A stretch of 62,412 bases of DNA, filler included, from an uncultured Planctomycetales bacterium (GTDB lineage: Bacteria; Omnitrophota; Gorgyraeia; Gygaellales; Profunditerraquicolaceae), in assembly GCA_964487475.1 (NCBI GenBank). It is 5 parts of 5 records of this genome, joined end to end, with 100 filler letters (N's around TTAATTAATTAA, not from the genome) between each part and the next. Parts side by side here need not be neighbours in the genome. Positions count along the whole stretch, not along the records: positions 1 to 16,968 come from CAZAPM010000022.1; positions 17,069 to 31,947 come from CAZAPM010000023.1; 3 more parts are not named here. One strand, written 5' to 3'. Shown one piece after another: positions 1-39,934 of this stretch. The notes below the pieces were generated by a model. That model was not told where the DNA came from and ran no database searches. It was given only the letters and a program-made list of their open reading frames with translations. Each line of letters opens with the position of its first letter. The first letter of the stretch is position 1. The position numbers and the translations under genes were made by a program.

Positions 1-2
1 GG

Positions 3-245
3 GACAGGGCGCCGCCGTATCGTCCCGCTGCGCGCGCGACCTTCGCGTTCCAGGTCCTGGTGAACGATATCTTCAGGCATGAAGCCGTCCATCACCGCGG
101 GGTGACCGCGGAAGAGCAGGCCATCTCCGCCAGCATCGATTTCTTCCGGAACGATCCTGACGCGTTCCTGGCGCTGCGCAACTGGGCCCGCCTGTTCGGG
201 GTGAGGCTGCATAAATCCTACCGTGACCAGCTTGATCAGCTGGAG
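3..245 (+). repeat. HExxH linker module copy 1 (5'-truncated)
   Basis: RAPPY...FAFQVLVNDIFRHEAVHHRG...E..AISASIDFF...LALRNWARLFGVRL...Y. Confidence 0.92.
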
Positions 246-3200
246 ATCGCGCAGAACCGCAAGGATGTCCTTTACCTGGATTCGGTCAGGTTCAGCGCGG
301 AATACGAGCTTTATCATGAGGCCAAGTTCGGTCTGGGTAACGGCCGGATCATGTCCCGTTCGGCGGCTGAGGAGCGGCAGTATGGCTCCACTTCCTGGCC
401 CATGACCTTCGTGAGCGGAGTGTTCAACAAGCCGGAGGCGAACGCCTCCGAGCTGGTCAACGTCACGAACTGGCTGCCGCTGACCTTCCGCACGCAGATC
501 GCCGGGGATTACGGATGCTGGTTCCAGGTGGACCGGGGCCTGCTGCCAGAGTATCGTATCTCCCTGAACATGCGCCATGGGGTGATGGAAAGGGATATGC
601 GCTGGAGGGATGACAAGGGGCGGGAGGTCCGTATCCATATCCGCCGCATCGTCAGCCAGGCGAGGGAAGATATCGCGGCCATCGAATATACGGTCGTCCC
701 GCAGTTCACGGGAAGTATCGAGTTCGAAGCCGGTCTGGATGCCGCCATGTTCAACCGCAGCGAAGCCATGGTGCGCAAGCATCTGGAAGTCATCTCCAAG
801 GGCCAGTCTCAGGGCGCAGGCATATACCTGACCGCCAGGACCGCCGAATCGAAGATCGCCGTCGCCGAAGCCTCCCGGCTGTCGGTGTTTGCGGATGATG
901 TCCCGGTATCCCTGCAGCCGCAGGTGCGCGAGGAGCAGGAGAGGGTTTTCCAGACCGTTTCCCTGCCTGTCAAGGCCGGCCAGGAGATCAGGGTCGAGAA
1001 GGTGGTCAGCATCCTCACTTCGAAGGAGACCGGGATGGACGCTCCGGCTGAAGTCGAGCGCGTAGCCCGGGAACATGCGGCATCCGCGCCTGCCTTCGCC
1101 GCGCTTTATGACGAGCATGCCCTGGCGTGGGAACGCATCTGGGATAATTCCGGCCTGACGGTGGAGGGGGATCCTCAGGTGCAGATGGCGGCCAACTACT
1201 GTACGTTCTCCCTGTTGCAGTCCGCCCGGGAGGGCGAGGAGCTGGCGAATATCGGCGCGAGGACCTTTGGAGAACATTACAAGGGGCATACCTTCTGGGA
1301 CACGGAAATATACATGCTCCCGCTCTTTACCTATACTCAGCCCAAGACCGCGCGTTCCCTGCTCATGTACCGGTATCACTGCTTAAGCGGCGCCCGCGTC
1401 CGGGCCCGCGCAGAAGGTTTCCAAGGCGCGAGGTTCCCCTGGAGAAGCGGGATGGCCCGAAAGAGCGCATCCGGAGCGTATGAAGGAGGGGAGGAGCTTA
1501 CCACACATGCGATCCGCGATTTCGAGATCGGCCCGATCCCCGGCGAGGATCTGACCGGCAGGCTCGAGATCCACGTGAACTGGGATATCGTAGTGGCGGT
1601 GAAGCGTTATTTCGAGGCCACCGGTGATCAGGAGTTCCTGGAGGATTACGGCGCGGAGCTCATGCTGGAGATCGCCCGTCTGGCCGCCAGCCCCGCGTAT
1701 ACGGTGTGGAACGAGTCCCGCAGGTCGTACGATACCCGCAGCCTTGGACCGAACGAATGGGGAGAGAAGGACGCCGGCGCGGAACACATCCCCGGAGTGC
1801 GCAACAACGCGTATAACAACGTCATGACCGCGTTCACCATCTTTACCGCTTTGGAATATCTTCAGAAGATCCCCGCGGCCAAGAGACAGGCTTTGCTGCA
1901 GCGCTGCGGGATGAGCGAAGCGGAGTTCGCGGAGTTCGAATCCCGGGGTCAGGATATCATCCAGAAGATCTATGTGCCGTACGACCCGCAGACCAGACTG
2001 ATCTTTGAATCGGAGTTCTTCCTTGACCGCAAGGCCATAGAAGGGTTCCTCAAGCCGGAGATCCCCTGGTATGACAGTAAGATCCGTAACGAAGTCCTGA
2101 TGCATTTGAACGGCGCTCCGGCCAGCAGTTATCAGGTCGTACGTCAGCCCGACACCATGATGCTTTTCGTGCTGCGGGAGCTCTTCTCCGATGAGTTCAA
2201 CGGCATCTTTGTGCAGCGGTTCGGCCGCAATATCTTCGATGACGAGCATCTGGAGAAAAACCGGCAGTATTATACCCCCAAGACCTCCGGGGAATCCTCC
2301 CTGGTGTTCACCGCGGTGTGTATCTACGAGCTTATGTCCGGGCATCTGCGTAAGGCCATGGAAGCGTTCCTTACCGGCGTGCGTATCCTGGGGGAGACCA
2401 GCCGTCAGAAGGTCGGCCGCCAGGGTATCGCGTCCGCTAACAACGGCGGGGTGTTCTACGCGCTGGTCAGGGGCTTCGCCGGCCTGCAGATCTCGGAGCA
2501 GGGCATCCGCGTCTCTCCGGTACTGCCCGAAGGGTTTACCCGGATCGGTTTCAAAGTGCATTACCGCGGCGTGCGCATCGCCTTCAATATCGCGGCGGAT
2601 CGGATCACCGTCACTCCGGAACTCCTGCCCGGTTCCCGCGGGGAAGCTCCGGAGGCCATCAGTATGTATATGTACGGCCAGCAGGTCGAGGTCAGGGTCG
2701 GCCGGGAGAACGTGTTTCCCGTCGGCGCCAAGAGCATCCGCTTCGCGGAACCGGACCTGGCGGTGCTGGCGACCCGTTTCAATGAATTGCTGGCGACCCT
2801 GAAATCCCTGCACGTTTCGGCGAAGCTCACCGATCAGGCAAAGGTCAGCCTGCGCGAAGGCGTACGGGTCGTCCGTGAGCACCAGGCGAACCAGGCTTCC
2901 TGCCACTGGTATGTGTATGACACGCTGGCGCTGCTCCTGGAATCCCACGTCCTGCCCTGGCTCGGCGAAGGTAAGGCCTTCGATCAGAGGCTGCTGTCGC
3001 ATGTGCTTGAGAGCGTCGAAGGGTTGATGGTCAATGCCCGGCATACGGTGTACCTTAATAATGTGGCTAATTTCTTCAAGCGCGAGCGGGCATACGAGAA
3101 GAGCCTGATGGTGCTGCGGATCGTGACCTCGATCGACGACAACAATACCGATGCCTTGAACACCATGGGGTATATCTACCTCTTCCAGGGGAAACGGGAC

Positions 3201-6200
3201 AGGGCGGAGTGGATCTTCCGCCGGGTGCTCTCCATCGATGCCTGGAACATGGGCGCCAAGAACGGCCTGGCGGATATGACGGAGGAACTGCGCTGGGTCA
3301 GGCCTTTCCCGGGAAAAGAACCCTTAAGCCGGGAAGGTGTTCGGACCGAAATTGACCGTTGCGGCGGATTGCAGCAGGAAACCTTTGCGGCGGTAGCCGC
3401 GTCCTCCGAGGAGGCGCAGCGGGCCATGCAGTATATGCGCGGGCTGGGCGATCACGAGGCCGCAGGGTTCCTGCAGTTCATCGCCGACGCCGGATTGATC
3501 CGCGCCGGGCCCGTTCCCGGCATGCTCGCGGGTGTCTATCAGCACCCGGAAGCCATGGAGCAGAAGGTGGTGGTGCTTTCCACCGCCGATCCCGCCTTCG
3601 ATATCCCCGCAGAAAAAGCCGTCAGCCTGATCTGGCTGGTCAGCGCATTGCTGCACCGCAAGGACAGCGAAAAGAGAGCCGCCGAGTACCTCGCGTCGGT
3701 CTCCGTCACGTATACCCCGAGCGCGCTGCATGCGGTAGTGGCGCAGGCGCAGAAGTTGCCGGCGGAGGCATTGCGGGCGGTGTGCGCAAAAGTATCCCCG
3801 CAGGATGCGGCGCTGCTGGATCATCCCCGCCAGCCCCTGGAAAAAGACGCCACTTCCCTGGTGATCATCAATGCCAGGTTGTACCCTTCCTTCAGCGCGA
3901 TCATAGAAGAGCTTAAATACCTGAAGACCCTGGGCGTACGGAAGGTGCTGCTCATAGGCTCGTTCCGGGAAAGCAAGCTCAGCGAAAAGTACGGGAAGGG
4001 CGATAGCGATATCCGCACGCAGGGAAAGACGTATCTTTATTTAAGCCGCGATCCGTCCGGCCGCATCGTTTCCGTGGTCTGGAACTGCGAGGACCCGGCC
4101 AAGCCGTATATCCCGGCCACTGCGCCCGGGGAGCTGGAGGGAAGTTCTCGCGGTACCATTATCTCCGGCAAGGGGGATAAGGACTTAAGCGCCGCGGCAT
4201 TTTCCATCCCGGACTATGAATTGAGCCCGGTGCTGGGCGGCCAGGAGCAGTTCGCGCCGCTGATCGCCCAGGCCCAGAGCATGGGTATCGATATCTTCCT
4301 GGATTATGTCCCGCACAGCACTTCCGTCGATTCTACCTGGCTGCTGGATGAAACGCTGCAGACGGGTGAGGGATACTGGTACGTATATAAGGACCTGCCC
4401 GAAGATCTGCAGCGCCAGCTCAGGGAGGCCGGCAACGAGGAATCCCTGATCGCGCTTTCCGATAAGATCCTCAAGGAGAATCCGGGGTATTTCCTGCATT
4501 ATTCCACGAAGCTCGGCAGATGGATATTCCTGGTCCTTTCCCGGGACGCCACCATGAAACCGCTGGGCCTCTTCTTCAACGATCTGCAGGTGCTTATAGA
4601 TATCACCAACCCGGATGTCCGCCACGCCCTGAGCAAGGTCGTGGTGCGTATGGCGGAGTGGGGGGTCAGGGGCGTGCGCGTGGATTGCGCGCAGGCGGTG
4701 GTCTTAGGCCTGCACGGCCAGAATCTCGGGTTCATCAACACCTGGAAGGACCATCATCTTACCAATCCGAATCCTCACGGGCAGTGGGAGTTGTACGCGG
4801 AGGCGGTCAATGCCGTCAGGATGGTCACCCCGGATTTCGAGTTCTTCGGGGAAGCCTTCTGGTTCTTCAACGAGCTGGAATCGTGCGGGTTCAACAGCCT
4901 TTACCAGCTGCATGTGTATAACCTGCTGCGCCGCAAGTCGGATATCCCCGAGCTGCGGCGTTATCTGATCCGCACCTCGGACCAGGAGCAGTCGCACCGC
5001 TCGCACGGCGCGATCAGCCACGACGATAACCCCAACTACCGTTTCGAGCGCCGGGGCAATCCGCAGGCTGCGGCGCGCCGGTTCCTGAACCATTCCCTGT
5101 TCATCGCCTCCATTCCCGGCCGGGTCATCTTCCATGACGAACAGCTGGGCCACGGATATCTTATCGCCGCGACCAACCGCAGGCTGGTGCTCGATGACGT
5201 TCCGCATCCCGAGGTGCGCGCCTCCTTCGCAGAGCTTTTCTCCCTGGCAGAGGAGCCTCTGATGCGCAAAGGCGGGTTGTACGTGCTGCAGACCTCCCAG
5301 CCGCAGGTGCTGGCGTTCGCGCGCTACACCCGCAGTAACGTGGCGATCGTGGTATGCAACCTTTCCGGATTCGTGTCACGCACGGATATCGGCAGCATCG
5401 GGCAGCGCCACAATGTTTCCTGGGATGATATGAAGGGATTATTCGAGATTCCGGCGGAGGGTGAAGAGAGGCTTTCCCTGCAGCGGGAGTTCGATACCCT
5501 GCTTAAAGAAAGCCCGCTGCCGGAGGCGTTCAAGACGGATCTGCTGGCCTATCTGCTCAAGGTACTGGAAGGGGAGACCGTCCGGGACAGGATACCGCTG
5601 GGCGATGCCGCATATCAGCTCGGTATCCACGATCGGGAGGCGTATTACGCCTTCATCGACCGCCTTAACGGCGAGGTGCTTTTGCGCAGCGGCGCGGAAC
5701 TCCTCTCCGAAGGGCTCTATGTCGAGCTTCCGCCGCATACCAGCCATGTGTTTCTGTTGCAGGCCATGCAGGACCGGCAGCAGGAGCTGCGCTGGATGCG
5801 TATCCGTTCCGGGGGGAAACCGCTGTCTTTGGAGGATGTGTATATCCTGATGCAGAAGTTCGGAGTGGAATTGAACTTTGCCGCCAAAGGCGATGCCGCC
5901 AAAGCCGAAGCGCTGAAGTACACGCTCAAAGCGGTCGCATCCGCGGAGGAGGCCTCCCGATTGCTGGCGGCGGCAGTTCCTTGCGCGTACCCGGCAAGAG
6001 TGTCGGCAGAGTATGCCTCTTTGGGGGCGCACGCCGGGCAGCAGGATGTGGTACGCTATTTCGAAGCCGCAAAGGCGCAGTTCGGCCTCAACTATGCGTT
6101 TACCCCCATGACCGTGACCGGGAATGTGGCGGAGTATGACGAGATCCTGCACCGGATCGATATTCTCGAGGGATTCGCTTCCCGGGCTCCGCCGTACGAA

Positions 6201-9200
6201 CCCGGCACGCAGCGTACGTTCATATTCCAGGCAGTGGTGGATGACATCTTCCGTCATGAATCCGTGCACCAGCAGGGTATAACCGACGAGCCTCTGGCCC
6301 GCCAGGCCAGCCGGGAGCATTTCTCTTTGCGTTCAGAGTCTTTGATCGCTTTCCTGCAGGGGGCGGAGGAATTCGGAGTGGAACTTTTCGAGGTCTACCG
6401 TAGCGAGCTGGCGGACCTCCTCTACAGATATATAGGTATCTCTATGGGTGGAGGCAAGGTGGCGGTCGCGTTGTTGAACGGTTCGCAGCAGATCGTGGCC
6501 GGTCCCCTGGAACTCCGCTGGGAGGCTGATCCGAGGTTCCAGGGGGAGAGCATCAAGGACGTTTCCCGCGCTCCCATGGTGATCGAGGTGATCGTCGATT
6601 TCGTGAAAAGGCTCATGAGCGGCCGCAGCGACCTCCTGGCATCGGTGAGCGCCGGATTGGCCGGGCCTGTGGATAAAGAGCAAGGGATCTTCGGGCCGAG
6701 CGCGCAGTTCAGGACCCCCAACCTTCCTTTCGATAATTATCCTTTCGTCGCGGAGCTTCGTAAGTCCCTGCAGCAGGCGGGTGCCGGAGATATCAAAGTG
6801 GTGATCTGCAACGACGCCGAAGCGTCCCTCAACGGAGAGACCTTCTCGCCTCTCGGTTCCCTGGCTGACGTACAAGACGGATGCATCGTGATCATCGGCG
6901 GAGGCATCAATGTCGCGGCCAAGAAGGACGGAAAGATCTTCGAGCCGGTCAAAGAGGCGGGGCATAACATCTTCCAGACCAGGGGCTCGGACGAAAAGGT
7001 GCATTATATCTGGAGGGGAGAAGAGAGCCGGGGCGGGCATCCTATCGAGTTCGGGAACACTCCGGAGGAGATCGGCAAGAAGTCCGGAGTGGCCGGGCTG
7101 GTCTATTCTCAGTTCGTCGAGGAGTACGGGGAAGGGCCCCTGGCGCAGCAGTCCTTCTGGTCCCATTTCCCGGGGTATCCTTTTATGAACTGGGCCGGCG
7201 GCATGCGCGATTTCGAAGACAGGGTTTCCGGCAGGTCCATCACCCGCCGGCTCCAGGAAGAGGTCGCACAGGTGGTTGCAGCCGGCGCGGCCCATCCCGA
7301 GTACGCGCATTATTATTCCCTGCGGCAGCGCTCCGAAGATCCCCAGTTCGCCGGGAAGATCACCATGGTGCTGAACGAGGAAGCGAAGGCAGGCAATCCG
7401 GTCGCCGTACGCTGGATCATCTCCGTTTCCCGTGAGATCGGGGAAGCGCTTGCGGCGTTTGCGGCCGCGTACCCTCAGGAGGCCTTTATCCGCCGGATGG
7501 TGCTGGTATCCGGTGTCAACGAGAACCTGGGTAAGGGCGTATATGAACATGCAGGGGAGGCGGAGGATATTTTCATCAAGTACGTGCGGGCTGCGGTCAG
7601 GGATGAGCTCACGGGATATTTCGGCTTCTCGCCTGCCGATGCCGCCGCGGTCGCGGAGGGTGTCCTGCGGTCCCGCCTGACCTATGAAAGGGAGTTTATC
7701 TCCTATCAGCCTTCTGCAGCGGAGAAGGGGGAGTTCCTGCGGGAGGCGGCGCGGGTGCGTCCGGCGAAGCAGGCTGAGCCAATTCGCCTGGCTGCCCTCG
7801 TATCGAAGCGCGCGCAGGGGATCAATGTGGCCCTTCCGGTGGTATCTGCGGGCATGACCACCAAATTATATAATCAGGCCACGGGGAACACGGTGTCCGT
7901 GGCGCAGTGCCGGGATGACGCCGCCACGCACGTGCGTTTGATGGAGTGGCTGGCCGCGACGTACGGCCTGGAAGTGATGTATTCCTTCATGCGGCTTTCC
8001 CTGGTACCTGCCGCTATCGCCGTTGCCAACGGACATCCGAATCCGATCAGGATCATGGATGAGTTCAACGAGGGGGTGGAGCGGTTCCTTACGATAGGGG
8101 ATATCGATATGGACAAGCTGTCCGTCCCGGAGCCTCAGTCGAACGCATTCTTAAGGCCGCAGCTTTCCATCCTGAGAATGGCTGCCGCCGCGCCGGGGAT
8201 GCAGGGCAGGCATCTCATGGCGTTCGTGCCCGGGCCGATCTCCCTGGTGGGGATGCTTATCGGCGCCGAGGATATCACGTTCGCGTATATGGATTCCCCG
8301 GATTCCCTTCCTCCGGCATTGGCGTACGCCTCCGAAGTGATCAAAAGGCTTGCGCTCGCGCTGCAGGAATCCGGAGCAGAGGTGATCTGCATGCTCGAGC
8401 CGACCATGCAGATCGTTCCTGTCCCGCTGGCCAAGCAGGCAGTGCCGTACATCAACGGGATATTCGCCGCGGTGCACGGCAAGGGAGCGCAGGCAGTGCT
8501 GCATGTGTGCGGAGCGACCAAGCGTTTCTTCAAGGTGCTCTCTCAGGTTGACGCGGACGGGTTCAGCCTCGATGCGGATGTGTCTTTAAAGGAGTTCGCC
8601 CAGGTGTACGTTGCGGAGTGCCCCGGAAGGAGTGAATCCGTGGTGGTCCTGGGTAATTACAGTACGTTCTCATTGCGGTCGGAATCCGCGGAGGAGACTG
8701 CGCGCAATGTCTCATCCATGATCGCGGCGTCCGCCGGGTTCCCCGAGGGAGCGTTGTACCTGCCCGCGTCCGGCTGCGAGATCAGGATGCTTAAGACGGG
8801 CGCCGACGGCCAGATCGACGCGGCGGCAGGGTTGGTCCAGCTTAAGGCGCTGGTCGAAGGGATGGCCCCGGCAGCGGCAAATCCGGCGTATCCCGCCGGG
8901 CTGATCGCGCAGGAAGTCTGCCTGATCGCTACCACGGGGGCGGAATCGCTGCCGGTTGAATACCTGGATGCCGCAAAAGCGGCGTTTGACCTGGAGTATG
9001 AGGTGGTGGATGCCACCTCTACCGGCGCGATCGCCGAGTTCAATAAGGCCACCGGCAAGGTCGATATCCTCAAGGAATTGATCTCCCGGGCGCCGCTGTA
9101 TCTGCCGGCCTCCAGGTCCAGCATGCTCTTCCAGGTGCTGATCAACGATATCTTTGCCCATGAGGCAGTGCATAGCCGCGGCATCGATGACGAGCCTTCC

Positions 9201-16968: not shown

Positions 16969-17068
16969 NNNNNNNNNNNNNNNNNNNNNNNNNNNNNNNN
17001 NNNNNNNNNNNNTTAATTAATTAANNNNNNNNNNNNNNNNNNNNNNNNNNNNNNNNNNNNNNNNNNNN
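16969..17068. other. Artificial contig spacer
   Basis: N44-TTAATTAATTAA-N44, with stops in all six frames. Confidence 0.99.
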
Positions 17069-20000: not shown

Positions 20001-23000
20001 TCCTGCTGGAAGGCCTCCGGCAGATCGGCAAGCCTATGGCCGAAGGGCTGAACACCTTCGATGAATTGAAAACGGCTTTGGAGGCGGGTTCCCGCAAGAC
20101 CGTGGATGTGCTTTTCGCCAAGAATAAGGAAGGTAAACCCGTGCACCCCGCGGCTACGGAAGTCTTCGAGATATTCCTGCAGTTCCGCAGCCGGGTGCAG
20201 GATCCCCGGAAATGGGTGGGGATCTACGATATCGGCTCGCCGGTGTACTGGTGGAGGCATCGCCGCCCCGCAGAGCTCTATCAGGAAAAGATCCAGATGC
20301 TCGCCGACATGACCGGAGAGTGGGTTGAGGTCAACGAGAAGGGCGTGTTCAAGGTCAAGCCGGCGGCGGCAGGCAGCGCGCTGGCCCAGGAGGCCCGGGC
20401 GATGCGCGATTTCCGCGGTATCATGAACACGCCGGTAGCCAATTGCGTGCTGGGTTCGGTGCGGGTCGGGGCGGACGGTTCCTATGTCGATCCCGTGACG
20501 GGCAGGGTAAGACGGATCACTCTGGCCAAACTGCACAAGGGGATCACGGTCGACGGGGTGTACCTGAAGGATGCCGTGGTGCAGTACAGCTATCTTCTTC
20601 CCGGAAGCCGCGTGACGGCAAGTGTGGTGAATAATTCGTACGGGAAATTCGATCTCGTGCAGTCATATGTGGAAGCGACGCATGCCGGCGATCTCAAGGC
20701 GTTCCGGGCGATCTCCTTCAATGTGGTGGAATCCCGGCCATTGTCCATGAGGAACACTTCGGTGGCCGATGTCTTCCGTCCGGAGATCAGGGATCCGCAC
20801 TTCGCCCGCGGCCAGACCAGGGTGTGGGCCGGGTTCGAGGTGGACGGGAAATCCGCAGGCAACACGGTGCTTTCCCAGAATGCGTTCAGTTTCAATGAAT
20901 TGCGCTCCTTCTCCAATGCGGTCGAGGCCAATGAGCAGGTACGTCAGCGGGTGCTCCGAAGGATGTTCGGGCTCGCCGCCAAAATGCTCTCCCGGTATAC
21001 GCCGAGCGCGTATCCGGCCACGATCGATGATGCTTTGATCGATCCGGCAAAAACACGGGAGGGAGTAAGGTATTTCGAAGCGGCAAAGCTTGCGTTCGGC
21101 ACTCCGTACTCGTTCGTAGCCAGAACCGTGACCGGGCAGGTCGCGGAGTATAACGAGGTGGACCGCTGTATCGATATAATGACAACCTTATCCGCGAGAG
21201 CGCCTCCTTTCGATCTGACCGATCCCCGTTCTGTCGCCTTCCAGATCCTGGTCAATGATATCTTCCGCCATGAGACCGTGCACCACCGGGGGCTGCGCCA
21301 GGAGCGCCCCGCGATCGCCGCAAGCATGGAGTATTTTGACACCCGTCTGGGCGAAATGGGCATGATGCGCAGATGGGCCGGATCCTTCGGGGTTCGTTTC
21401 GACGAACATTATTCCCGGAGGATGAGAAGGTCCGCCTCTCGCGTCTTGCAGACAGCGGTGGCCATTAACGGCGAATTCGCTCCGACCGCTGCCATGTCGC
21501 TGGCGAATGAGATCTGCCGGCTGCAGGAGGCCGACCCGAAGTATCAGGTGAAGGTCGTATTCGCGACCGGCGATACCCAGGTCCCCATTCTGCATTTCCT
21601 GTCCATGGATCCCCGCATCGACTGGTCTCGTGTCCAGGCGTTCCATCTCGATGAATATGAGGGGGTGCAAAAAGACGATCCGCATTCCTTTGCCGCCTAT
21701 CTGCATAAGCACCTTTTCTCCCGGGTAGCCATTCCCGAAAGCAATATCCATTACATCTGCGATTTTGTCCGGTCCCTGAACGTTACCGGGGAGATTACTT
21801 CGGAGCAGCTGGCCGGGTACCCTGCGGCGCTCGAGGCGCTCGGCGGTGCGGATATTCTTATCCTCGGGATCGGGCTTGACGGTCATCTGGCGTTCAATGA
21901 GCCTCCGGATTTCTCCGGATTTGCCGCGCATATGCAGCGGGTTGCGCTTACCGAAAGCACGCTGGCGGCGAACGAGAAGAACTATCCCGGTATCCGTGCC
22001 CGTCCGTATGCGTTCACCATGGGTATCGCGGATATCCTTAAAGCCCGCCGGATTTTCTTCTTCGCGAGCGGCCAGAGCAAAGCGCAGATCGTGCGTGCGG
22101 CCCTGGAAGGAGAGGTCACGCAGGATGTTCCGGCATCAGTGCTGCAGACCCACCCCAGGGTGCACGTGGTCCTGGAGATGCAAGCCGCTTCCCTTCTGCA
22201 CACCGAATTTGCCTGGTCCCGTCCTTATGGCGCGGCCTGCGGAGTGCTGGCCATCGGTGGCGCAACGGCCGCGGCGGGATGGGTTGCCGGGATCGTGGCG
22301 GCAGTGCTGCTCGGAGTATTTTTATTTTCGCCGGTTTTGAAAGCGGTTTCACCCGTAAAATGGCATCTCAGGCGTTTTTCCAGCCATAACGCAGAGGTCC
22401 GTCACCAGGCGGCGCTCGGGATCCTGTCACTCGGGACCCGGGCACACGCGGAACTGCTGCATGCGCTCGCAGATCCCAACGCCTATATCCGGGAAGCAGC
22501 CATCTTCGCGGTGTCCCGATCGCCGGTGAAGGATGCGGCGTACCATATCGAATTTCTCCTCGATGACGGCTCTCCCATGGTGCGGGCGGCGGCGCTGCAG
22601 GCGCTGCGCGCGATGGGCGGATGGCGCAGCGCGTTCATCCCCGAGTTCCTCTCCCGGGTCCGCGCGAGGGTGCCTGAGGACGAGGCGTTAAGCCTGCTGC
22701 ACAAGGCTTTGAATTTCAAGGAGCGCGGGATCGAGATCGAAGTGGTGGAGACCGAAGGGCCGGTAAGGGCCGTGTGCAGCGCCTGCCAGATGGGGATCGG
22801 TTTCGATGACGACGATCACATCCGCGCGGGAAAATGTTCGGTATATGACCGGGACGGGAATCCGCGCCTGCATCCCACCTTCCAGGTCGTGGCGGCAGGT
22901 ACCCTTACCAAGAAGGCTCCGGGTACGGCTCCGGTGGCGTATGACGAGTTGATCAACCTTATCCGCAGTGTCAAGGATGCCCGTCAGGCCGAATACCGCG

Positions 23001-26000
23001 TGCCCGAAGCGATCATCGCGCACATTCTTTCCACCCCGTCCTTCGTCAGTTATGAGGCCATTGTCCGGCACCTGCGTTCCGGAACGATACGTCTGGTAGT
23101 GGACAATCCGGTTTCCGCGGACCCCTACCTGTATGACCGTATGCGCGGGGAGATGGGCTTGCTGTGCTTCATTACTCCCGAGTATAAGCTGGGGAGCAAA
23201 TATTACTACGGTCCCGAGTATGCGGCTTTGACGGATAGTGACCGCAAGCAGTGCCAGTTCCATTGTTTCGCGGTGCACATCACGCAGGCGACGTTCAACC
23301 GCTGCGTGGAAAGGGCCCAGGGAGGCAGTATTACCGCGTTCCGTCCGGGAGGCAAGGAGTTCCTGGCGCAGATCTTCGTGCACGAATGCACGGAGAAATT
23401 CATCCCGCCCCTCAAGAACATCACCATGCACCGGTTCGCCTGCATGCAGGAGATATTCTTCGCCACCGAGGACGCGATCGACCGCGGGTTAAGCGACCTG
23501 GATATATTCTTCATCGAGCATGCCCAGGCCATGGCGGAGAGGGAGAGCGACCAGGGCGGAGTGTGTACCGACTATCTGGAGAGGCTGCGGGAAGAGTATG
23601 ACCTCACGCATGACCTTTCCATCGGAGCCTTCGGAAAGTTGCTGGGGGTCGACCAGACCGCGGGTCTTTTCAAGCGTGCGGATGTGGTGGCGGTCAAGAC
23701 CGCTCCCGGTAATCCGAACATCAAGTCTGCAAGAAGAGAGGATTCGATCGCCGGGATCCCCGCTGCGGCTCAAAAAGAGATCGTTCCCATCGGGGACGAG
23801 GTGGTGCGCGCGCTGCGCACCAGTTCCTTCGGCGTGGCGTATGCGCTCCTGCTGCAGATGATCGAATCGCAGCAGCTCGTCTTCTCGGTGGATGCGCTGG
23901 ATATGGACCATGCGCAGGCCCTGCTTTTCCCGATAAACAATGAGCCTATGGGTCTGGTGGCGTATCTTTCACAGAGCAAGGAACAACGTTATGAGATACA
24001 CCTTACCCGGAGGCTTTTCGAGCGTCTCAGCGGTTTCGAGCGCATCGCGTTCCTCTCCGGGCTGGTGGCGTACCTATTCATCGAGGCGTTCTTTCCTCTG
24101 ATCGAGGGCAGCAAGCATACCCTGGCTTCACTCCATGCGTTCCTGTTCTCTACCGCCGAAGCCAAGAGGTTGGGGGTGAATTCTATCGATCACATGTGCC
24201 TGCGGTATGCGGCTTCCGAAGAACGGCTCGACTTCAAGTATTTCTATTATCTGCTTTCCATATACGATGTGCTGCGGGACCCCTCGGGCAAGTTCAAGCG
24301 CGGGCTGTATGAGTTCCTGAGCGCCATGAAGATCGCCAACAGTAATATGCTCCCGATCTTTCGGCCGGAGGACATCCTGCCGTGGTACCGGTACCACCTC
24401 GAGTATGAATTGGGCAACGGTGCGGTCGCCAATCCCGCCTCCATCGAAGACCTCATCGTGATCAGCCGGCAGTTGGAAGGCCTGGCGGAGTCGAATTCGG
24501 TGGTGCGGGAGCATCTCCAGCCGGACCAGAAACGATACCTGCTTAAGTTCTCTTATAAGCCGGGGCCGCAGGAGGATCCGGTCACGCTCTATCTGCCTTC
24601 GGAGGTGAAGCGTTTCACCGAGCCGGACAGCGGGTTCGTGCTCGAACAGAAGGTGCGCGCGCTCTCCGAAAGCGACCGGCAGACCATCCTCTCGCACGAA
24701 GGAGCGATCCGGAAACTGCAGCAGGATCGCACCGCGCTTGACCCCGAGCAGAAATTGCAGCGTAAGTCGTTGAACCATCAGATCGCCGACCTGGCCAAAG
24801 CCATCGTTACCATCATGCATATGCCTTTTATCGAGTACCTTATCGAGAGGATCCGCATCTCCCGTCAGAGCTCGCCCTCACAAAAGTGCCTGGTGGTGGG
24901 GATGATGGCACCTTCATCGACCGGTAAGACCACCTGGGCGGCCGAGCTGCGCAACCAGTTGCATAAGCACAATATCAAGGCGGAGGTGTTAAGTTCGGAC
25001 AGCTTCCTTTATCACGGTGAAGGGTTCCGTTTCTCGAACGCTGATTCCGGTACCCGGGTCTATTCTCTCGAGGGGGTGGCCATGTATGACTCTTCCTCGT
25101 ATCTCAAGGCTATCAAAAGGCTTAAATCGGGCCTTCCGCTCATGCCTCCCCCGAACCAGCATGAAAGTAACGCCGCGAGCGTCATGGTCCAGGAGCAGGA
25201 GCAGGAGCGTTTTTCGGACCTGCAGGTATTGATCCTGGAGGATCCCTTCATGGGGGTCAACGAAGAGATACTCGAGCAGATCGATCTGTATGTGGGCGGC
25301 GCGTTTGACGACGGGATCCTGCGTCTGGAGCGGCGCCTGGAGCGGGATACGCAGCCGCTGGATGAGGGCGGGACCCGCGGCATGCTCTCCGGGGACGTGA
25401 TCGTTGATTTCGCCCGGAAGATGTTCGTGGAATCCCGGGATGCGACCCGGCATACCATCCTCAATCCGGATTTCACCCATGCCATCTGGCAGGCGGATAC
25501 CGGCAGGCTCTTCGTCAATAAAAGCCAGCGGTTCATCCAGTCTCTGCTTTCCCATGACCGTAAGGTGTCTATCCGCAGGAAACTGGCCGCCGAACTCGGA
25601 AAACCGGCGATCAGCAGCGTGCTGCAGGATCCTTCCCTGGCGGTCCTCATCGACCTGGATGCGTCCCTGACGCTGCCGGGCCAGGAGATCACCGATGAGG
25701 GGGCGAATGCGCTGCTGCGTATGCTCGCCGCCAAGGTCAAAGTGGTCATCCTGACCTCCAACTCCTTCAAGGCGGTCGAGTCGCAGGTGATCCGGCCTCT
25801 TTTCATCAAGGAGATGGAGCACCAGTATGCGGAGCAGCTGATCGTGCTGGCCTGCAACGGCACCCAGATATGGAAGTGGTCGGCGGCCAAAAGCGAGTTC
25901 GAACGGGTATATCTTAAAAAATTCACGCCCGAAGAAGTGGCGCGGATCATGGAGGTATTGTCGAAGGCGGTTTCGGATTTCAGCCTCATGTATTATGCCC

Positions 26001-29000
26001 AGGAGTACCGGGGAGCGGGAGAGTATCCGGTGGATGAGTTCATCGAGAACAGGGATAACGCCCAGATCGTACTGCAGGTGCTGGGGAAGCACGCGACTCC
26101 CGAGCAGAAGGACCAGTATACGCTGCGGGACAGGGATGTGCGTACGGATATCGAGGCGTTCCTTTTCCGGGCCTGTCTGCCGGCGTTCGTGAAGGTGGAA
26201 GGCCGTACTTCTGTCGACATCAACCCGAAAGGGGTGGACAAGGGCTTCGGGATACAGGCGCTCAAGGATCAGGAGGGGATCTCCTCCTCCAGTATATTCT
26301 ACATCGATGACTGGTTCAGCGGCAAAGGGGACGGCACCGAAGTGATCAAGCGCGGGGTGGCGGTGTGCGCTTCGGTGGGGGATGAGCTTCCTTCCGATAA
26401 GAAGAGTCAGGTGCGTTTCATCCGCTCGGAGTTAAAGGGGCCGGAAGGTGTGGCTACGATCCTGGAACTGGCGTTGGAGGTGATCGAAGAGAAGTCCGAA
26501 GACGGGGCGCCGGGATATTCCGGCAGGCTCTCGGAGCGTTTCGATCCTACCTATAGAGTGGCCTCGCCGAAGGACGCGGCCCGCTATTTTGACGATGCGG
26601 CCCACGCCTTCGGCCTGGGGTATGAGTTCGTCGACAGTACCGTAAGCGGGATGCTGGCGGAGTACGATCCGGTCAATAGAAGGGTGCGCATTGTAAGACA
26701 TCTGGCGGACAGGGCTCCTCCGTACGCGCGCGGAGCCGTTTCCAGTATCGCCTTCCAGGTGCTGGTCAACGATATCTTCCGTCACGAAGCCGTCCATCAC
26801 TCGGGTGTGCTTGATGAAAGCCTGGCCGAGTCCGCCAGTATCAGTTACTTCACTACCCACAAAGAGCACCTGCTGTATTTCCATAACTGGAACGATGTGT
26901 TCGGGATCGAGCTGCTGCCCGGATATCAGCGTAAGATCCGGCTGCTGGAGGGCGCAGTGTTCGGGGGAGCCCTCTTCGGGTATAATCTTGCCGCGGTCTC
27001 TACCCGTAAGGAAAAGCTTTCCGGGGAGGCTGAGTCCCGGGTGCATAAGATGACCGCCTGGGCCCTGGCCGAGGACAGGATCGTCTCCTTCGCTTTCGGC
27101 GGATACCGCATCGATACCCGGCGCAAGCAGGGGGTCAAACTTTACGGCATGCACGACACGCTTTCCGGCGCATCCGTCGAGTTCATGGCCGAGCGCGGCG
27201 CGACCATCGTTTCTTTCACCATCCATGGCACGGAGACGCTCTATTGCCCCGACCTGGAGAAATCCGGCGGCATTCCGGTACTGTGGCCTTTTGCGAGCCG
27301 TATCCGCGGGGGCAAATTCGTCTTCGAGTCCCGGGAGATCGATCTTAACGGGGTCCCCGGGGCCAAGTCAGACGGAAAGGGGAACGTCTATCACGGCATG
27401 GTGCGGTATGAGCGCTGGATCCTCGAGGCCGCGGGGATCGACGGCAACGGGGTGTTCGCCACCTTGTCATTCTCTACCGCGGGATACCCCGAGCTGGAAG
27501 CCGCGTTCGGAAAAGCGAAGGTCTTCCTTACCTACCGGCTTCAGGATTCCCTGCTTTCCATAAAAGCTTCGGTCGAGAACAGGGGAGGGACGTCGTTCCC
27601 GATGAGCTTCGGATTCCATCCCTGGTTCCTTACTCCCGCAAAGGCGGACTGGATCTTGAGTATTCCCGCCAAGGCGCATTGGGTGGCGCAGGACCTCTTG
27701 CCTGACGGGAGCATCGAGCCTGCGGGTGAGCTGCGCCGGCCTACGGTCCTGGGCAACCGCACCTTCGATGATGTATTCACCGACCTGGATTATTCCGGAG
27801 AGACGGCGGTAAGCCGGCTCTATGATCCCTCCCGCGGATTGTTGATCGAGGTCGGCCAGGATAAGAATTTCCCCCATGAAGTGCTCTATGTGCCGGCGGA
27901 TAAGGATGTGATCTGCATCGAGCCGCAGACCTCTTCCGCGGATGAGTTCAATCTTCACGCGCAGGGGATCCTGGATGCTTCTCCTGTGGTCCTTGTGCCG
28001 GGAGGGGTATGGCAGGGAGAAATGTCCATTTCCGTGAAGCAGGGGACCTATGCGCTCGCGAACCTTCCTTTGGTCAAGGCGGCGATCTTCGATCTGGACG
28101 GAGTGATCGTCAATACCGAGAAACTGCACTACTTGGCTTTGAAGAACGCGTTGCGGGGGGAGGGGATCTCCTTGAGCTGGCAGGAGTACCGTACCAGGGT
28201 TTCCGGCCACAGGAGCGTCGAGGTGCTGGGATCGTTGCCGCTGGATGAAGCGGCGAGAGCCCGGGTGCTGGCGAAGCGCAGGGATAATTTCGGCGCACTG
28301 GTCAGGGCCCAGGGCGTGGAAGTGTATCAGGACGTGCTGGGAAAGATCCTCGCGCTGCGCGAGATGGGTATCCCCTGCGCACTGGCCTCGGGAGGAAATG
28401 CGCCCCAGGTGAAAATGCTGCTGGAGGCGGCGCGCCTGACAGGATTCTTCCAGGTGATCGTGACCGGGGATGACGTGCCCAGAGGAAAGCCGTGTCCCGA
28501 TATATTCCTTAAGGCGGCGCAGCTCCTGCAGGTGCATCCGGCCGAAGCAGCAGTGTTCGAGGATGCGGTCGCGGGGATCGAGGCGGCGAAAGCCGGCGGG
28601 TTCGGTCTGGTGGTCGCGCTATCCCGTTTTGCGGAAGATGCCGACCTGAGAGCCAAGGGCGCGGATATCGTGACCCGGGATGCCTCCTCTTTGAGCCTTC
28701 GTGAGCTCTTCACCCGGGTGACCGCTCCCCGTGTGGCAGCGGCGTTAACGCGCGGAAGTTTCAAGGCGGCGGTATTCGATTTGGACGGAGTGATCAGCTC
28801 CACTGCCAAGCTGCACTTCCTGGCCTGGAAAAAGCTTTTTGAGGAGATCATCGTTATGGGCCGTGAGTTTACCCTGGATGATTTCCTTACCTATGTAGAC
28901 GGCCGTCCGCGTTTTGAGGGATGTCTGGCGATGCTTAAAGAGGCCCCCCGTACCCGCGACGCATTCGCGGCGCTGGAGCGGTATATCGATCCGGCCAAGG

Positions 29001-31947
29001 AGAAGGATGCCTATGTGCAGCTGACCGAGCCGCAGCAGGCCTTGATGGACCAGCTGACTGCCTGGGGGAACCTGAAGAACCGGTATTACAATGAAATGCT
29101 CGATCAGGCCCAGGGATTCCTTTCGATCTTTCCGGGCGTGGCAGAGGTATTGAATACTTTGACCAAAGCGGGCACCTTAACCGCCGTGGCCTCATCCAGC
29201 AAGAATGCGCCAAGGCTGGTGGAAGCGCTGCACCTTGCTCCGTTCTTCCGGGAGGTGCTTTGCGGCCTGGACCTCGGCAACTACAGTGTGCTGCTGCGCC
29301 GCGTGATCCGGGGCAAGCCGGCTGCGGATATGTTCATCGAAGCGGCTTTGCGCCTGGGAGTGCTGCCGTGTCATTGCGTAGGGTTCGAGGATGCGCCGCA
29401 GGGAGTCGAGGCGATCAAGGCGGCACACATGCTTGCGGTCGGTATCGACAGCGAAGGCAAGGGGCTCATCAAGTGCGCGGATCTGGTGGTTACCGGATTG
29501 GCGCAGCTGGCGGAGTATTTCAACCGGGCAAAGGGTTTTTCGTATCCTGCCAGCATGGCCAAGATCAAGGCGGAAGACCGGGCTCCGACCCCCGCGGAGC
29601 TGGCCAAGATCAATGCGGCCTTCGCCGCTGAATGTGCGGAGGGAGAGGCCATCCAGCTGGACGCCGGGAAAGTAGTGATGCGTTCGGATATGGAATCTCC
29701 GGCCGAAGTGAATATGGAGACCATGACCCTCTTTGTCCATCCGGTCTTTCTCGAGCATGCCCCCGCGGAGGCGCTGCGCGTGGTGCTGCAGGGGCATGAG
29801 CTCTTCCATCTTCAGGGTAAGACCGAAGATGAGGCGGAAGTACTGACGATCGCGTATTTGAAGAAGCGCGGGATACTGGTCGAGCACCTGCGGTTCCTGC
29901 AGCATAATCAGTTCGGGCTGCGTCCCATGCCGCTGTGGGAATCGAAGCTTATCCGGCAGATCGACGCGGTGCCGGAGCGCGAGCGGACCGAGAAGGAGGA
30001 GAAACTCCTGGAGTGTATCATCTCCCAGAACAAGCTGGCGAACCAGTATCTGCACGGCGGAGAGTTCCATGATTTCGTCAGCATCGATCCGATCCTCGCC
30101 GACGGCATATTGAACAGCATGCCCTCCGAGCATAAGGCCCGGGCGAGTTCCGAGCGCCTGTATGACGAGATGGTGGATGTGACCCTGTTGCTGCATCGTC
30201 TGAGAGAAGGCAACGGGCACGTGTTCGTTTCGATCAGCAATCCGTTCGGCGCCCATCATACCGAGTTCATCACGGTGAACCGGGAGCGGGAAGGGATCGA
30301 GGCAGTGACCGCGACCTTTATCTCCGAACAGCTGGGCGGATATATCGGAAGCATCATCTCCTATACCGGAAAGATGGATGAGAATCTGCCTTGCCCGGGA
30401 GTGGAGGTGGCGATCCACGAGGTGTGGAGGAAGCAGGAGGAGACGGTTTCCCCGCTGCATCTCGATGAGGTCAACCGGGTGCGTTTTCCGGATATCTTCC
30501 TGAAAGAGAATGTCGTCGCCCGCCGCAGCCTGCATAACCGCCTGGTGCGTCAGGCGCAGTCCAGGTTCGAGAAGAACCGTCAGGTCAGCGATATCAATGA
30601 GCAGGTGCGAGTCCGTCTGCGCCAGGGTTTTGAGATCAGGGGAACGCCGGATTCCCAGCGTATCGTCAGGCACGGCACCATGGTCAAGTATGCTCCCCGC
30701 GCGGTCGACCATGTGACGTATCCGCTGCAGTACGAGATCGCCGGGGACGAACGTGAATCGCGGGAGGCCCGGGATGCGCTCGAGGCGGCTTTGCGCGAAG
30801 CGGTGCGTAACGAAGCGGCCCGCATCGGCGGTGACCAGGCGGTGGAGAGCGGCCTGCGCGTGCTCGTCGCGGACCTCCTGCTGGAGGCTTCCCTGACCCT
30901 GCCTACCCATGGCCGCATCGTTCCCATGGCGCATTTCCTCTCCACGGTGATCAAGGCCCTGGAGGAGCTCAACCGCAGCGAGGATAACCGCCAGCTCATC
31001 ACGATCGTAACCTCCAGCGTGAACCGTATCTCCAGGGTGTTGTATCCGAACATCGATGCGCGGGAAGTGGAGCTGTCGCAGGAATCTTTACCGCCTGCCG
31101 AGGCCTTCGTGGTGCGCGCCGCAGAAGAGCTCAAGGCGGAGTATGAGGCCCAGATCGCCCGCGCGGAGCAGGAAGGGGATACGGAGACCGTAGAGAGGAA
31201 CGCCTTCCTGATCATTACACTGGATGATATCCCCCGCAAGGTCATCAAGATCATGCGGCAGGGGGTAGGTGACCTCTCTGAAGCGGTGTTCAGGGCAGCG
31301 CAGCCCCTGGTGATCAAGGCGGTCGCTCCCATGCGCACGGAATTCAATAAGATGTTCTATGATGTCGCGACCCTGGCCGAGGAGCTGATGCATACTCTTT
31401 CTTCAGCCGGCCCGGAGGCGGAGATATCCATTGCGGGCGCTCCGGCGAACGCTCCCTTCATCCTGCTGCTTAAGGCGGATATCGCAGGGCTCAAGCAGTA
31501 CGCCCAGCTGCGCAGCCGTTATCCGAACCTGGTCGGCATGGTAGTGCGCACGGGGGTCAAGCATTACGGCATCACCGCCCGCCAGCAGAGGTTCCCTATC
31601 CTCCCCGAGGCCTATACGGTGGTGGAGGGGATCCGGTACTCCACCTGGGATGCGGTCGAGGGCGGGGAGATGGCGATACTCAATACCGAGACCGGGTCTC
31701 TGAAGATCAATCCCTCGGTCAGGGAGCTGCGGGAATCGCAGGAGGAAGAGCTTTCCAGCCGGGCAGTGGCGATCCATGCCGCGCGCCGTAACGACTTGCC
31801 GGTGATGACCAATGACGGCGTGACCATGTCCCTGGCGGTCAATATCGATTTCGCCCATGAGGCAGAGGCGGTGGCCAAGGCTAAAGTGAGCGCCATCGGG
31901 CTTTACCGCACCGAATCGGAGTACGCCCTGCAGGAGGTCATTACCCG
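17069..31947 (+). CDS. Giant multi-enzyme protein, fragment 2 (open at both ends, ~4,960 aa)
   Basis: Stop-free frame across the whole contig. Domain order: beta-PGM C-terminus, beta-PGM, Nudix, nucleotidyltransferase-like, repeat, NagB, hydrophobic segment, HEAT, tandem unknown pair, P-loop kinase, HAD-IIB, repeat, aldose 1-epimerase, two beta-PGM, divergent repeat, PTS Enzyme I. Confidence 0.95.
17258..18060 (+). other. Domain: beta-phosphoglucomutase-like HAD-IA
   Basis: FDLDGVIT.TA.VH..AWK, VDGKSR..G, ASASKN, KP.P..F, VEDAEAGVQAG. Confidence 0.9.
18265..19040 (+). other. Domain: Nudix hydrolase (IDI/YfcD-like)
   Basis: IDIYD..GKVIG...H....LHH...V.AF...GKVLMQ.R...K..FP; canonical Nudix box GGASRGERARDAGKREFREELGI. 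Confidence 0.85.
19090..20990 (+). other. Domain: putative sugar-1-phosphate nucleotidyltransferase-like region with beta-helix-like tail
   Basis: ICVLHDAGSASRCSP resembles the Gly-rich (A/G)GxxxR-P nucleotidyltransferase loop; LKDAVVQYSYLLPGSRVTASVVNNS resembles hexapeptide repeats. Confidence 0.45.
21011..21430 (+). repeat. HExxH linker module copy 6
   Basis: YPATID...YFEAAKLAFGTPY..V..TVTGQVAEYNE...IDI...RAPPF...FQILVNDIFRHETVHH (His codon 21269). Confidence 0.93.
21440..22200 (+). other. Domain: glucosamine-6-phosphate deaminase (NagB)
   Basis: FATGDT, FHLDEY, LGIGLDGHLAFNEP, TMGIADIL.AR, G.SKA, VPASVLQ.H. Confidence 0.92.
22229..22630 (+). other. Hydrophobic Gly/Ala-rich membrane segment followed by HEAT-like repeats
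   Basis: GVLAIGGATAAAGWVAGIVAAVLLGVFLFSPVL, then three copies of L.D....VR.AA...L. Confidence 0.75.
24890..25520 (+). other. Domain: uridine kinase/phosphoribulokinase-like P-loop kinase
   Basis: VVGMMAPSSTGKTT, LSSDSF, VLILED, RLERRLERD...RG. Confidence 0.75.
25640..26490 (+). other. Domain: HAD-IIB (phosphomannomutase/Cof-like)
   Basis: IDLDASLT, LTSNS, CNGT, GRTSVDINPKGVDKGFG, YIDD. Confidence 0.8.
26516..26950 (+). repeat. HExxH linker module copy 7
   Basis: YSGRLSERF...YFDDAAHAFGLGYEFV.STVSGMLAEYD...RAPPY...FQVLVNDIFRHEAVHH (His codon 26783). Confidence 0.93.
27130..28040 (+). other. Domain: aldose 1-epimerase (mutarotase)
   Basis: GIPVLWPFASRI, YHG.VR, FGFHPWF, FDDVF, ICIEPQT. Confidence 0.9.
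28075..29520 (+). other. Domains: two tandem beta-phosphoglucomutase-like HAD-IA
   Basis: FDLDGVIVNTEKLH...GKPCPDIF...FEDAVAGI and FDLDGVISSTAKLHFLAWK...ASSSKNA...GKPAADMF...FEDAPQGV. Confidence 0.9.
29543..29960 (+). repeat. Divergent HExxH linker module (copy 8)
   Basis: YPAS...PAEVN...LFV...HAP...VVLQGHELFHLQG.TEDEA...I.Y...QFG; same motif order but weak similarity (His codon 29795). Confidence 0.6.
30620..31947 (+). other. Domain: PTS Enzyme I (PEP-protein phosphotransferase)-like, C-terminally truncated
   Basis: TGVKHYGITARQ..FP (phospho-His motif equivalent), GEMAILN...G.L.INP, TNDG....LAVNI, IGLYRTE. Confidence 0.8.
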
Positions 31948-32047
31948 NNNNNNNNNNNNNNNNNNNNNNNNNNNNNNNNNNNNNNNNNNNNTTAATTAAT
32001 TAANNNNNNNNNNNNNNNNNNNNNNNNNNNNNNNNNNNNNNNNNNNN
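31948..32047. other. Artificial contig spacer
   Basis: N44-TTAATTAATTAA-N44. Confidence 0.99.
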
Positions 32048-32080: not shown

Positions 32081-32767
32081 ATGCGTATCTCCGTTGTCGT
32101 CCCCTGTTTGAACGAGGAACCCACCATCGGGATCTGTATCGATAAGATCCGGAGGTTTTTCGATGAGCATGCCTATCAGGGGGAGATCATCGTCGTAGAC
32201 AACAGTTCCGAAGACGGATCCGTGCATGTTGCCAGGAACAAGGGGGTCTTGGTGTTACATGAAACGGTGAAGGGGTACGGAGCGGTATGCCGCCGGGGCC
32301 TTCAGGAGGCTAAGGGAGATATCGTTGTCATAGCGGACGGCGATGATACCTACGATTTCCTGGAGTTGGAAAAGCTCATCGAGCCCCTGAAACACGGGTC
32401 CTGCGATCTGGTAAGCGGTACCCGTCTGAATGGGACCATAAAACCGGGCGCGATGCCCTGGCTGCACCACCGGATCGGGAATCCTTTTCTCACCTGGCTT
32501 TTTAACGTGCTCTACGGAGGACGCATGTCCGACCTTTTGAGCGGGTATAAGGCCATCACGCGCGAGGCGTTCAACCGTCTTATCCTGCGGCAGATCGGGA
32601 TGCAGTTTACGGCCGAGCTCATGGTGGCGGCGCTGCGCGCAGGCTTAAGGATAAAGGAAACCCCGATCACCTATTCTTCCCGGTCTCCCTTGACGCGGCC
32701 TAAACTGCGTTCTTTCCAGGACGGCTGGGGGTACTTCGCCTTTCTTTTACGGGCAAGATTTTTTTGA
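32081..32767 (+). CDS. GT2 glycosyltransferase, DPM1-like polyprenol-phosphate glycosyltransferase
   Basis: ISVVVPCLNEE, VDNSSEDGS, KGYG, DGDDTYD, SG.R, D..SGYKA, KL.SF.DG. Confidence 0.92.
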   Translation: MRISVVVPCLNEEPTIGICIDKIRRFFDEHAYQGEIIVVDNSSEDGSVHVARNKGVLVLHETVKGYGAVCRRGLQEAKGDIVVIADGDDTYDFLELEKLIEPLKHGSCDLVSGTRLNGTIKPGAMPWLHHRIGNPFLTWLFNVLYGGRMSDLLSGYKAITREAFNRLILRQIGMQFTAELMVAALRAGLRIKETPITYSSRSPLTRPKLRSFQDGWGYFAFLLRARFF

Positions 32768-34114: not shown

Positions 34115-34120
34115 AGTGGT

Positions 34121-35947: not shown

Positions 35948-35953
35948 CAATTC

Positions 35954-36058: not shown

Positions 36059-36064
36059 GAAAAA

Positions 36065-39930: not shown

Positions 39931-39934
39931 ATTG

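Follow-up and report, generated by a model that had tools for sequence, protein, structure and literature searches.

Archaeovorins, as defined by West-Roberts et al. (10.1101/2023.11.21.568195), are proteins encoded by a single open reading frame (ORF) of at least 30,000 amino acids (aa), the type being a 39,678-aa protein of Ca. Velamenicoccus archaeovorus. In the part of that paper available to us their cargo includes TPI, GPI, FBPase, PGM/PMM, FBA and PPDK, their flanking genes are the same as those described below, and autocatalytic cleavage by C39/S8 is suggested. Nielsen and Lui 2026 (10.64898/2026.06.07.730766) described, in the account accessible to us, Class 1 giants that are multi-enzyme metabolic clusters and a Pfam module 2 devoted to sugar metabolism. 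The consulted sections of Seymour et al. (PMC10066038) and of the Lipocone paper (PMC12419801) agree on such giants, and the latter notes metallopeptidase domains in them. As far as these partial sources go, sugar-metabolism cargo in Omnitrophota giants is already published; the main published reading of what the giants do is digestion of prey cell walls. Here we describe domains of sugar and sugar-phosphate enzymes that form a block encoded by two contigs, C22 (window 1-16968) and C23 (window 17069-31947), of a 62,412-nucleotide window from assembly GCA_964487475.1 (all features given below are on the plus strand). Judging from sequence, the block is real although mixed and partly degenerate, and it likely belongs to one membrane-anchored giant protein of ~56,000 residues. 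We give a probability of roughly 45% to the reading that it acts in the cytoplasm of the predator that makes it.

The giant is close to archaeovorins in layout. As in the published text on these, there is a putative C39 N-terminus, many membrane segments and HEAT, TPR, GT, GH, peptidase and NUDIX domains, all present across the pieces, with secretion and rotamase genes upstream and PilZ, binding-protein and GH genes downstream. In our flanking-gene scan, which took in 47 of 50 ORFs, the start in C5 is preceded by rotamase, secretin and T2SS E/F (Tad/T2SS) genes, and PilZ, sugar-binding protein, permease, GH2 and ROK genes directly follow the stop of the C16 frame (C16:26954), which fits the published arrangement. 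The best matches of GidA are from Omnitrophota (62-63% identity, in a scan that covered 7 of the 64 collection parts), and by this marker the organism is a member of that phylum, in agreement with the initial annotation. A divergent SecA-DEAD domain, present in most archaeovorins as described in the text at hand, was not found in the assembled pieces of the giant gene, which has unassembled gaps; the search gave only a canonical 993-aa SecA. Dockerin is absent among the domain matches of the pieces, and these gave no SAM-methyltransferase Pfam match, only an MtaA-like domain. GH65, GH13, beta-PGM-family HAD, mutarotase, NagB and EI cargo and a minigluzincin-like spacer are present here and were not found in the accessible text of the archaeovorin paper. 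Class 1 giants are similar in having many metabolic Pfams per chain, ROK (44 proteins), HAD (74), PGM/PMM and a membrane anchor, and differ in that the consulted account (10.64898/2026.06.07.730766) does not name GH65, NagB or mutarotase, check catalytic residues or compare giant versus stand-alone occurrence. Our literature searches turned up no publication that describes GH65, NagB or mutarotase as cargo of such giants, or a minigluzincin repeat within them, although entries of this kind may be present in the bioRxiv supplements or in the catalogue of 916 proteins.

The initial annotation had read positions 285..31947 as one polypeptide in frame. The window consists however of five contigs (C22, C23, C24, C26, C29) stitched via 100-base artificial linkers, and the apparent single frame crosses one of these, a caution for any reader of the window. 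This non-biological linker (16969..17068) consists of two runs of 44 N flanking a 12-base spacer with stops in all frames; others are found at 31948-32047, 46655-46754 and 58856-58955, and no genomic context can therefore be read across the joins. C22 holds an open frame of 5,655 aa (3..16967) and C23 one of 4,959 aa (17069..31945), each open at both ends, and the corresponding ORFs (3-17024 and 17072-31999) are in different window frames. A single frame in window order was rejected because the linker separates the contigs and C22 continues into another contig, C15. That the two frames belong to one polypeptide nevertheless remains likely, with C23 preceding C22. At its 3' end C22 shares a 55-nt overlap with reversed C15 (16,838 aa), with the frame kept and the cut HAD domain completed, and the joined frame is 22,475 aa long. 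Run X1 contains a contig (depth 6.05) that spans the final ~134 nt of C23 before it enters repeat-like sequence; elsewhere than in C23, this sequence is most similar to the beginning of C22 (47/53 bases). A 1,340-nt contig of the same run, also of depth 6.05, aligns through its positions 1214-1340 to window 1-127. If both records are one contig, as we infer from their equal depth, the gap between C23 and C22 amounts to 1,079 nt (361 codons), keeps the frame and is about the size needed for the remainder of the PTS Enzyme I (EI) domain and half a repeat. The gene order is then likely C23, C22, C15 and C16, opposite to that of the window. C22 and C15 together with the putative C23 bridge amount to ~27,800 aa and all pieces to 55,651 aa, several links being unbridged. 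The tail of C15 and the head of reversed C16 have a common repeat type in their translations. At this unbridged junction (C15 5' end, C16 3' end) we observed a short helical repeat array of ~50 aa per unit, common to the homolog P0162.

The initial annotation had proposed recovering the N-terminus and looking for an export signal, and contig C5 supplied a candidate. Its start is 51-55% identical to the N-termini of 31,476-, 57,756- and 68,606-aa frames in three family relatives, and its frame contains a C39 domain (PF03412, aa 209-294), LysM, YkuD, NAGPA and M23 domains, one HExxH repeat copy and a signal-like N-terminal segment spotted by eye, which suggests that C5 is part of the same giant gene. 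Three further contigs, C28, C33 and C34 (L012-L014), carry paralogous cassettes of beta-PGM-like HAD, pyrophosphorylase-like and PRK domains with 74-85% DNA identity; duplication inside the gene is the likely cause of the assembly breaks. A chimeric frame, which would have undone the original proposal, is unsupported inside C23: Logan contigs of four runs cover 30/30 bins, the listed pieces being gap-free with no contig spanning the whole of C23, and for C22 the check covered window 1-900. The first ~100 nt of C23 (window 17069-17171) differ from the Logan contigs in 4/4 runs, all of which have a tandem HAD copy upstream instead, and the C23 start may have been mis-extended from a paralogous HAD copy.

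Domain calls were made with Pfam and NCBIfam profiles and positions were derived from profile ranges and alignments. GH13, GH65, at least four beta-PGM-like HADs, mutarotase, ROK, PfkB, NagB, three HAD-IIB domains and EI, all named in the initial annotation, are present. The GH65 region (288..2687) has the three-domain phosphorylase-type build (N, catalytic and C domains) and the catalytic Glu. Its best solved-structure match is kojibiose phosphorylase (E 4e-79), with two phosphate-site residues differing. Its nearest homologues share ~31-34% identity, and some of these are fusions of a beta-PGM-family HAD, a trehalose-phosphatase and GH65, which we take to be of the OtsB1/Rv2006 type. Such fusions and operons resemble the block in this respect and differ from it in that the GH65 of the giant falls in its own long-stemmed clade, the HAD-IIB domains are PMM-like and the order of the parts is unlike. 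In relatives from the taxonomic order, GH65 adjoins a beta-PGM-family HAD. The GH13 domain (3843..5792, Pfam core 4206-4859) is divergent, and its Asp/Glu/Asp is invariant relative to the homolog P0125. The NagB glucosamine-6-phosphate deaminase-like domain (21491..22153) has intact catalytic motifs when aligned to B. subtilis NagB. The aldose 1-epimerase (mutarotase, 27185..28033) keeps, by eye, the His/His/Glu that we take to be catalytic, and the second PfkB copy (11703..12572, 1-PFK/hexose-kinase-like) keeps its presumed catalytic Asp, also by eye. The EI-like domain (31562..31947) consists of the phospho-His region and the first 50 PEP-binding profile positions, and is cut by the contig end.

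Three whole HAD-IA domains lie in C23 and one is cut by the end of C22. The copies at 17258..17920, which has paralogues in C33 (two) and C28, and at 28763..29446, whose closest solved structures are beta-PGMs, have the full beta-PGM signature (two Asp, cap His and Arg, and a Ser-Lys-Asn loop). It is incomplete in the YqaB/phosphatase-like copy at 28073..28612, where a part is missing, and in the copy whose N-terminal part is at 16830..16968 and whose remainder is in C15. The TIGR01990 cut-off (189.4 bits) is above the scores of the whole copies (111.8, 104.2 and 120.2 bits) and of the C15 half (66.5 bits). The ratio of nonsynonymous to synonymous substitution rates (dN/dS) is 0.10-0.22 in 7/7 HAD paralogue pairs tested, indicating from sequence comparison that these are under purifying selection. 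Of the HAD-IIB domains at 9393..10079, 15303..16262 and 25643..26299, two reach TIGR01484. The second is a weak PMM-like call (PMM E=0.006) that matches the other two HAD-IIBs by phmmer and has Glu in place of the second Asp.

Other domains appear degenerate. In the ROK domain (6393..7682) the ATP-site positions are Ser and Gly instead of the Asp and Thr seen in two ROKs that this genome encodes as stand-alone genes (one alignment row, an opposite-strand frame, was left out), the catalytic Asp being kept. The domain scores 25.7 bits with the glucokinase profile TIGR00744, whose cut-off is 260, and a comparison with PDB sequences gave no real match. This domain is likely not a kinase. The first PfkB copy (10758..11333) has Asn at the catalytic Asp position and is likely inactive, and the dN/dS of the PfkB pair is 0.50. 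A coherent pathway is opposed by the ROK domain without its ATP-site residues, the degenerate PfkB-1, the HADs under their cut-off and the cut EI, and the glucokinase step inside the giant is therefore doubtful. These observations could also mean that enzyme folds were gathered by repeat-mediated recombination and that many of them are sugar-phosphate sensors, scaffolds or decoys, the pathway being a by-product. No domain attains an NCBIfam equivalog cut-off, and order and content vary among relatives, as such accretion would predict. In contrast, the GH65 and GH13 catalytic motifs are kept relative to P0125, with 63% identity overall and a peak of 75-81% in the windows around the catalytic residues, the NagB motifs are intact, the HAD paralogues are under apparent purifying selection, and sugar enzymes are clustered both here and, with a different enzyme set, in the relative G009. 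We consider accretion of this kind improbable.

The initial annotation had also proposed a coherent route from alpha-glucan to hexose-phosphate. Conservation of the GH65, GH13 and NagB catalytic residues and the clustering of sugar families sustain part of this claim: sugar-related enzyme families make up 10/13 in C23 and C22 versus 2/13 in the other pieces (hand classification, Fisher p=0.005), a count that left out TPR, HEAT, LysM, YkuD, NAGPA and M23 and whose contrast would weaken if the last four were counted as carbohydrate-acting. A complete pathway is not supported, given the degenerate ROK and PfkB-1, the unmatched beta-PGM cut-off and the interleaved off-pathway domains. The latter, which the initial annotation did not mention, are an MtaA/CmuA (UroD-fold) methyltransferase-like domain (7773..8852), an IDI-like NUDIX domain (18344..18619), a fucose-pyrophosphorylase-like region (19079..20998), only a lead (Atlas 0.95, with the family on 25% of cluster members), a PRK/uridine-kinase-like P-loop domain (24893..25354), HEAT repeats (22379..22609) and TPR.

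Between the cargo groups lie seven copies of a ~140-aa HExxH repeat, at 3..209 (C-terminal half), 5976..6386, 8877..9290, 12633..13046, 16302..16733, 20999..21400 and 26507..26914, with the His, Glu, His and Glu (Zn ligands plus Glu) invariant in 7/7. In fold, the AlphaFold model of the copy at 12633..13046 (pLDDT 90) comes closest to three minigluzincins, selecase (Z 8.0, rmsd 3.1, 96 residues aligned), abylysin (7.3) and jannalysin (6.7), the next match being at 5.1, so that the score is moderate. A Foldseek search with the model gave nothing at E<=0.001 (best jannalysin, E 0.023), a Pfam search of the repeat nothing meaningful, and a pattern scan of genome_contigs found none. The module shares with selecase, proabylysin and projannalysin the fold and the HExxH plus downstream Glu, and differs in being an internal repeat between enzyme domains, in its 7-13% identity and in the many homologous copies without the motif. 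A second kind of HExxH module (29549..29938) is present too in the G007 and G020 giants. The ~140-aa repeat was found in 9/80 relatives, nearly always within very long frames, next to PGM, adenylate kinase, PFK, phosphorylase or ROK domains, and cargo swaps at its boundary among homologues: P0125 has GH65-GH13-repeat-HAD where the giant has ROK after the repeat, and P0127 is missing the mutarotase after the repeat. As modules are swapped at the HExxH repeat, the block is not a fused operon. In view of the shuffled gene order and modules of relatives and of the GH65 tree (a quick tree of 60 sequences), the proposal of an operon fused into a metabolon is not supported, and a fused operon from a close relative is rejected. 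In the same tree the giant-type GH65s form a separate clade on a long branch, and no donor can therefore be named.

From these patterns the repeat is likely a recombination joint or a scaffold. Self-cleavage is possible as predicted from motif and fold; the full HExxH-plus-Glu pattern is kept in only 14/58 homologous repeat stretches, some from incomplete alignments, so cleavage is no conserved need. A self-cleaving polyprotein, in which the repeats would cut between cargo and free a kit draining glycogen, trehalose and sugar phosphates into the prey cytoplasm, the neighboring sugar ABC transporter would recover the sugars, and lineages would restock the kit at the repeats by recombination, seems to us improbable.

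We then compared giant-bound and stand-alone copies, a check proposed with the original annotation that gave a split answer. In this genome GH65, GH13, NagB and mutarotase are found solely in the giant, while ROK (three strong copies), PtsI, PPDK, PfkB (two) and HAD-IA also occur as stand-alone genes. The genome further encodes stand-alone OtsA, GlgA, TreT, alpha-PGM and HPr, and the cell therefore likely makes its own trehalose and glycogen. Searches by phmmer with the GH77, debranching-enzyme, phosphorylase and hexokinase domains of relatives revealed no stand-alone copy in this genome, a weak negative with such divergent queries. Among 61 family genomes, mutarotase occurs in seven, always in frames of at least 2,181 aa, and NagB in seven, with 6/7 in frames of at least 2,866 aa; this restriction to giants, in repeat-bounded modules, is the new observation of this work. 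GH13 is present in 20/61 and lies in a frame >2,000 aa in 11 of these 20, beta-PGM-family HADs are mostly stand-alone, and GH65 is stand-alone in 10/60 relatives, that is, in all that have it. In the 68,606-aa giant of G009, of which ~50,000 aa were scanned, a separate block comprises ROK, PMM, PGM, RPE (two), GatZ, PGI, GPI, enolase, PPDK and PGK. At G009:C1 240001-280000 (L063, L064) of this giant the sugar-phosphate domains are dense (ROK, PMM, PGM, two RPE, GatZ, PGI and GPI, with CofD and ARMT1) and start after a copy of the same HExxH repeat. Of 22 repeat-bearing proteins picked by length from 51 matches, 13 had Pfam matches at E<=1e-9, with at least one HAD, sugar, alpha-glucan or PTS domain in every one of these 13. 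Repeat-bearing giant fragments of relatives carry debranching enzyme, GH77, TreT, GT5, phosphorylase, hexokinase and HPr.

Several of these observations are those expected of a payload delivered to prey, in which hairpins would enter the prey membrane, or HExxH modules would release the block, and prey glycogen, trehalose and sugar phosphates would be drained to importable free sugars. The giant-bound mutarotase and NagB agree with it, as do the redundancy of ROK, PfkB, EI and HAD-IA with stand-alone genes, the multiplied HAD domains, the long GH65 branch, the storage-carbohydrate enzymes of relatives, the invariant metal-site residues on a minigluzincin-like fold and the Tad/T2SS genes upstream. 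A translocation route is however only postulated, with SecA-DEAD not found in the assembled pieces, the full HExxH-plus-Glu pattern is kept in a minority of the homologous stretches, and the signalling and biosynthetic domains of the same chain suit the predator's own cytoplasm. Delivery into prey appears to us somewhat unlikely.

A hydropathy scan of the pieces gave 59 hydrophobic segments, with one clear segment in C23 (a second call was weak) and none in C22. This sole clear membrane anchor of the two contigs (22226..22340), likely a helical hairpin, is followed by Lys/Arg residues on the side that holds the block. The PfkB, EI, PRK-like and phosphorylase domains depend on ATP, PEP or phosphate, and the block side is therefore likely a cytoplasm, as the initial annotation had argued from the same needs. 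Giants of relatives have enzymes of glycogen and trehalose metabolism close to the HExxH repeat, which also agrees with the initial annotation. The block thus likely works in a cytoplasm and not on cell walls. Alternatively, enzymes facing outward, in the periplasm or the contact zone, could pre-process sugars from lysed prey before import. The signal-peptide-like N-terminus and the sugar ABC and GH2 genes downstream fit this possibility, the topology predictions in the accessible literature place such domains outside, and the available text of West-Roberts et al. (10.1101/2023.11.21.568195) proposes likewise for glycolytic domains, although its authors themselves doubt the localization. The cofactor needs and the Lys/Arg residues on the block side argue against an outward position, which we hold to be very unlikely.

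We tentatively favor action in the predator's own cytoplasm. The signal-bearing C39 N-terminus and the LysM/YkuD/M23 region would face outward, and the later membrane segments, often Lys/Arg-flanked hairpins, would leave in the cytoplasm the ~11,800 residues without an anchor that lie between HEAT and the first helix of C15. There glucose and beta-glucose-1-phosphate would be set free by GH13 and GH65, sugar phosphates would be converted into one another or dephosphorylated by the HADs, mutarotase, NagB, PfkB-2 and EI would process the resulting products, and ROK and PfkB-1 would bind instead of catalyzing. The block would have expanded by cargo duplication and swapping at the HExxH repeats, not by a single-operon fusion. 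Consistent with cytoplasmic action, stand-alone OtsA, GlgA, TreT, alpha-PGM, HPr and PtsI offer substrates and partners, this genome has GH65, GH13, NagB and mutarotase solely in the giant, the GH65, GH13 and NagB catalytic residues are kept and the HAD dN/dS values are low. The same protein also holds HATPase, GNAT, helicase and alanine-dehydrogenase domains, and sugar-binding protein, permease, GH2 and ROK genes follow downstream. The consulted account of Nielsen and Lui (10.64898/2026.06.07.730766) offers a cytoplasm-facing reading for giants that have transmembrane segments only.

Other results speak against this placement. The same account reads giants with a signal peptide and transmembrane segments as outward-facing, and the giant here starts signal-peptide-like; the proposed topology was drawn from a hydropathy scan and the positive-inside rule, and the same hairpins could insert in a prey membrane. 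The GH65 domain scores 229 bits with Pfam versus 372-412 for full-length stand-alone copies, and the giant-type GH65s (n=3) form a clade on a stem of 1.78 outside both stand-alone groups of Omnitrophota, such strong divergence being as expected of conflict cargo. Mutarotase was not found in 54 of the 61 family genomes, nor NagB in 54 of 61, so both seem dispensable for routine metabolism. As to continuity, the C23-C22 bridge is one contig in 1/4 runs, and the C15-C16 and C36-C23 links are unbridged.

The storage-carbohydrate and sugar-phosphate enzymes found here and in relatives, together with giant-bound mutarotase and NagB, point to an intracellular sugar chemistry tied to the role of the giant, and the compact repeat-bounded domains suit expression and assay. 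Two unannotated regions of 650-720 aa remain in the block, at 13203-15152, which has no Pfam or NCBIfam match, and at 22679-24838, which recurs in C28, P0125 and P0127. Elsewhere in the genome a separate 5,011-aa frame (G000:C2:65636-80668, L016) has a C-terminal HATPase as its sole Pfam match. Of the 8 sequencing runs listed as containing this DNA, 7 come from biogas, wastewater or sludge (3 studies); no RNA run was among those listed, which carries no information on expression. Finally, C24 and C26 (window 32081-42803 and 47038-58825) carry clusters of glycosyltransferase, B12 radical-SAM, PMT-like, asparagine-synthase and amine-oxidase-like genes that look like surface-glycan loci, unrelated to the sugar-enzyme block.

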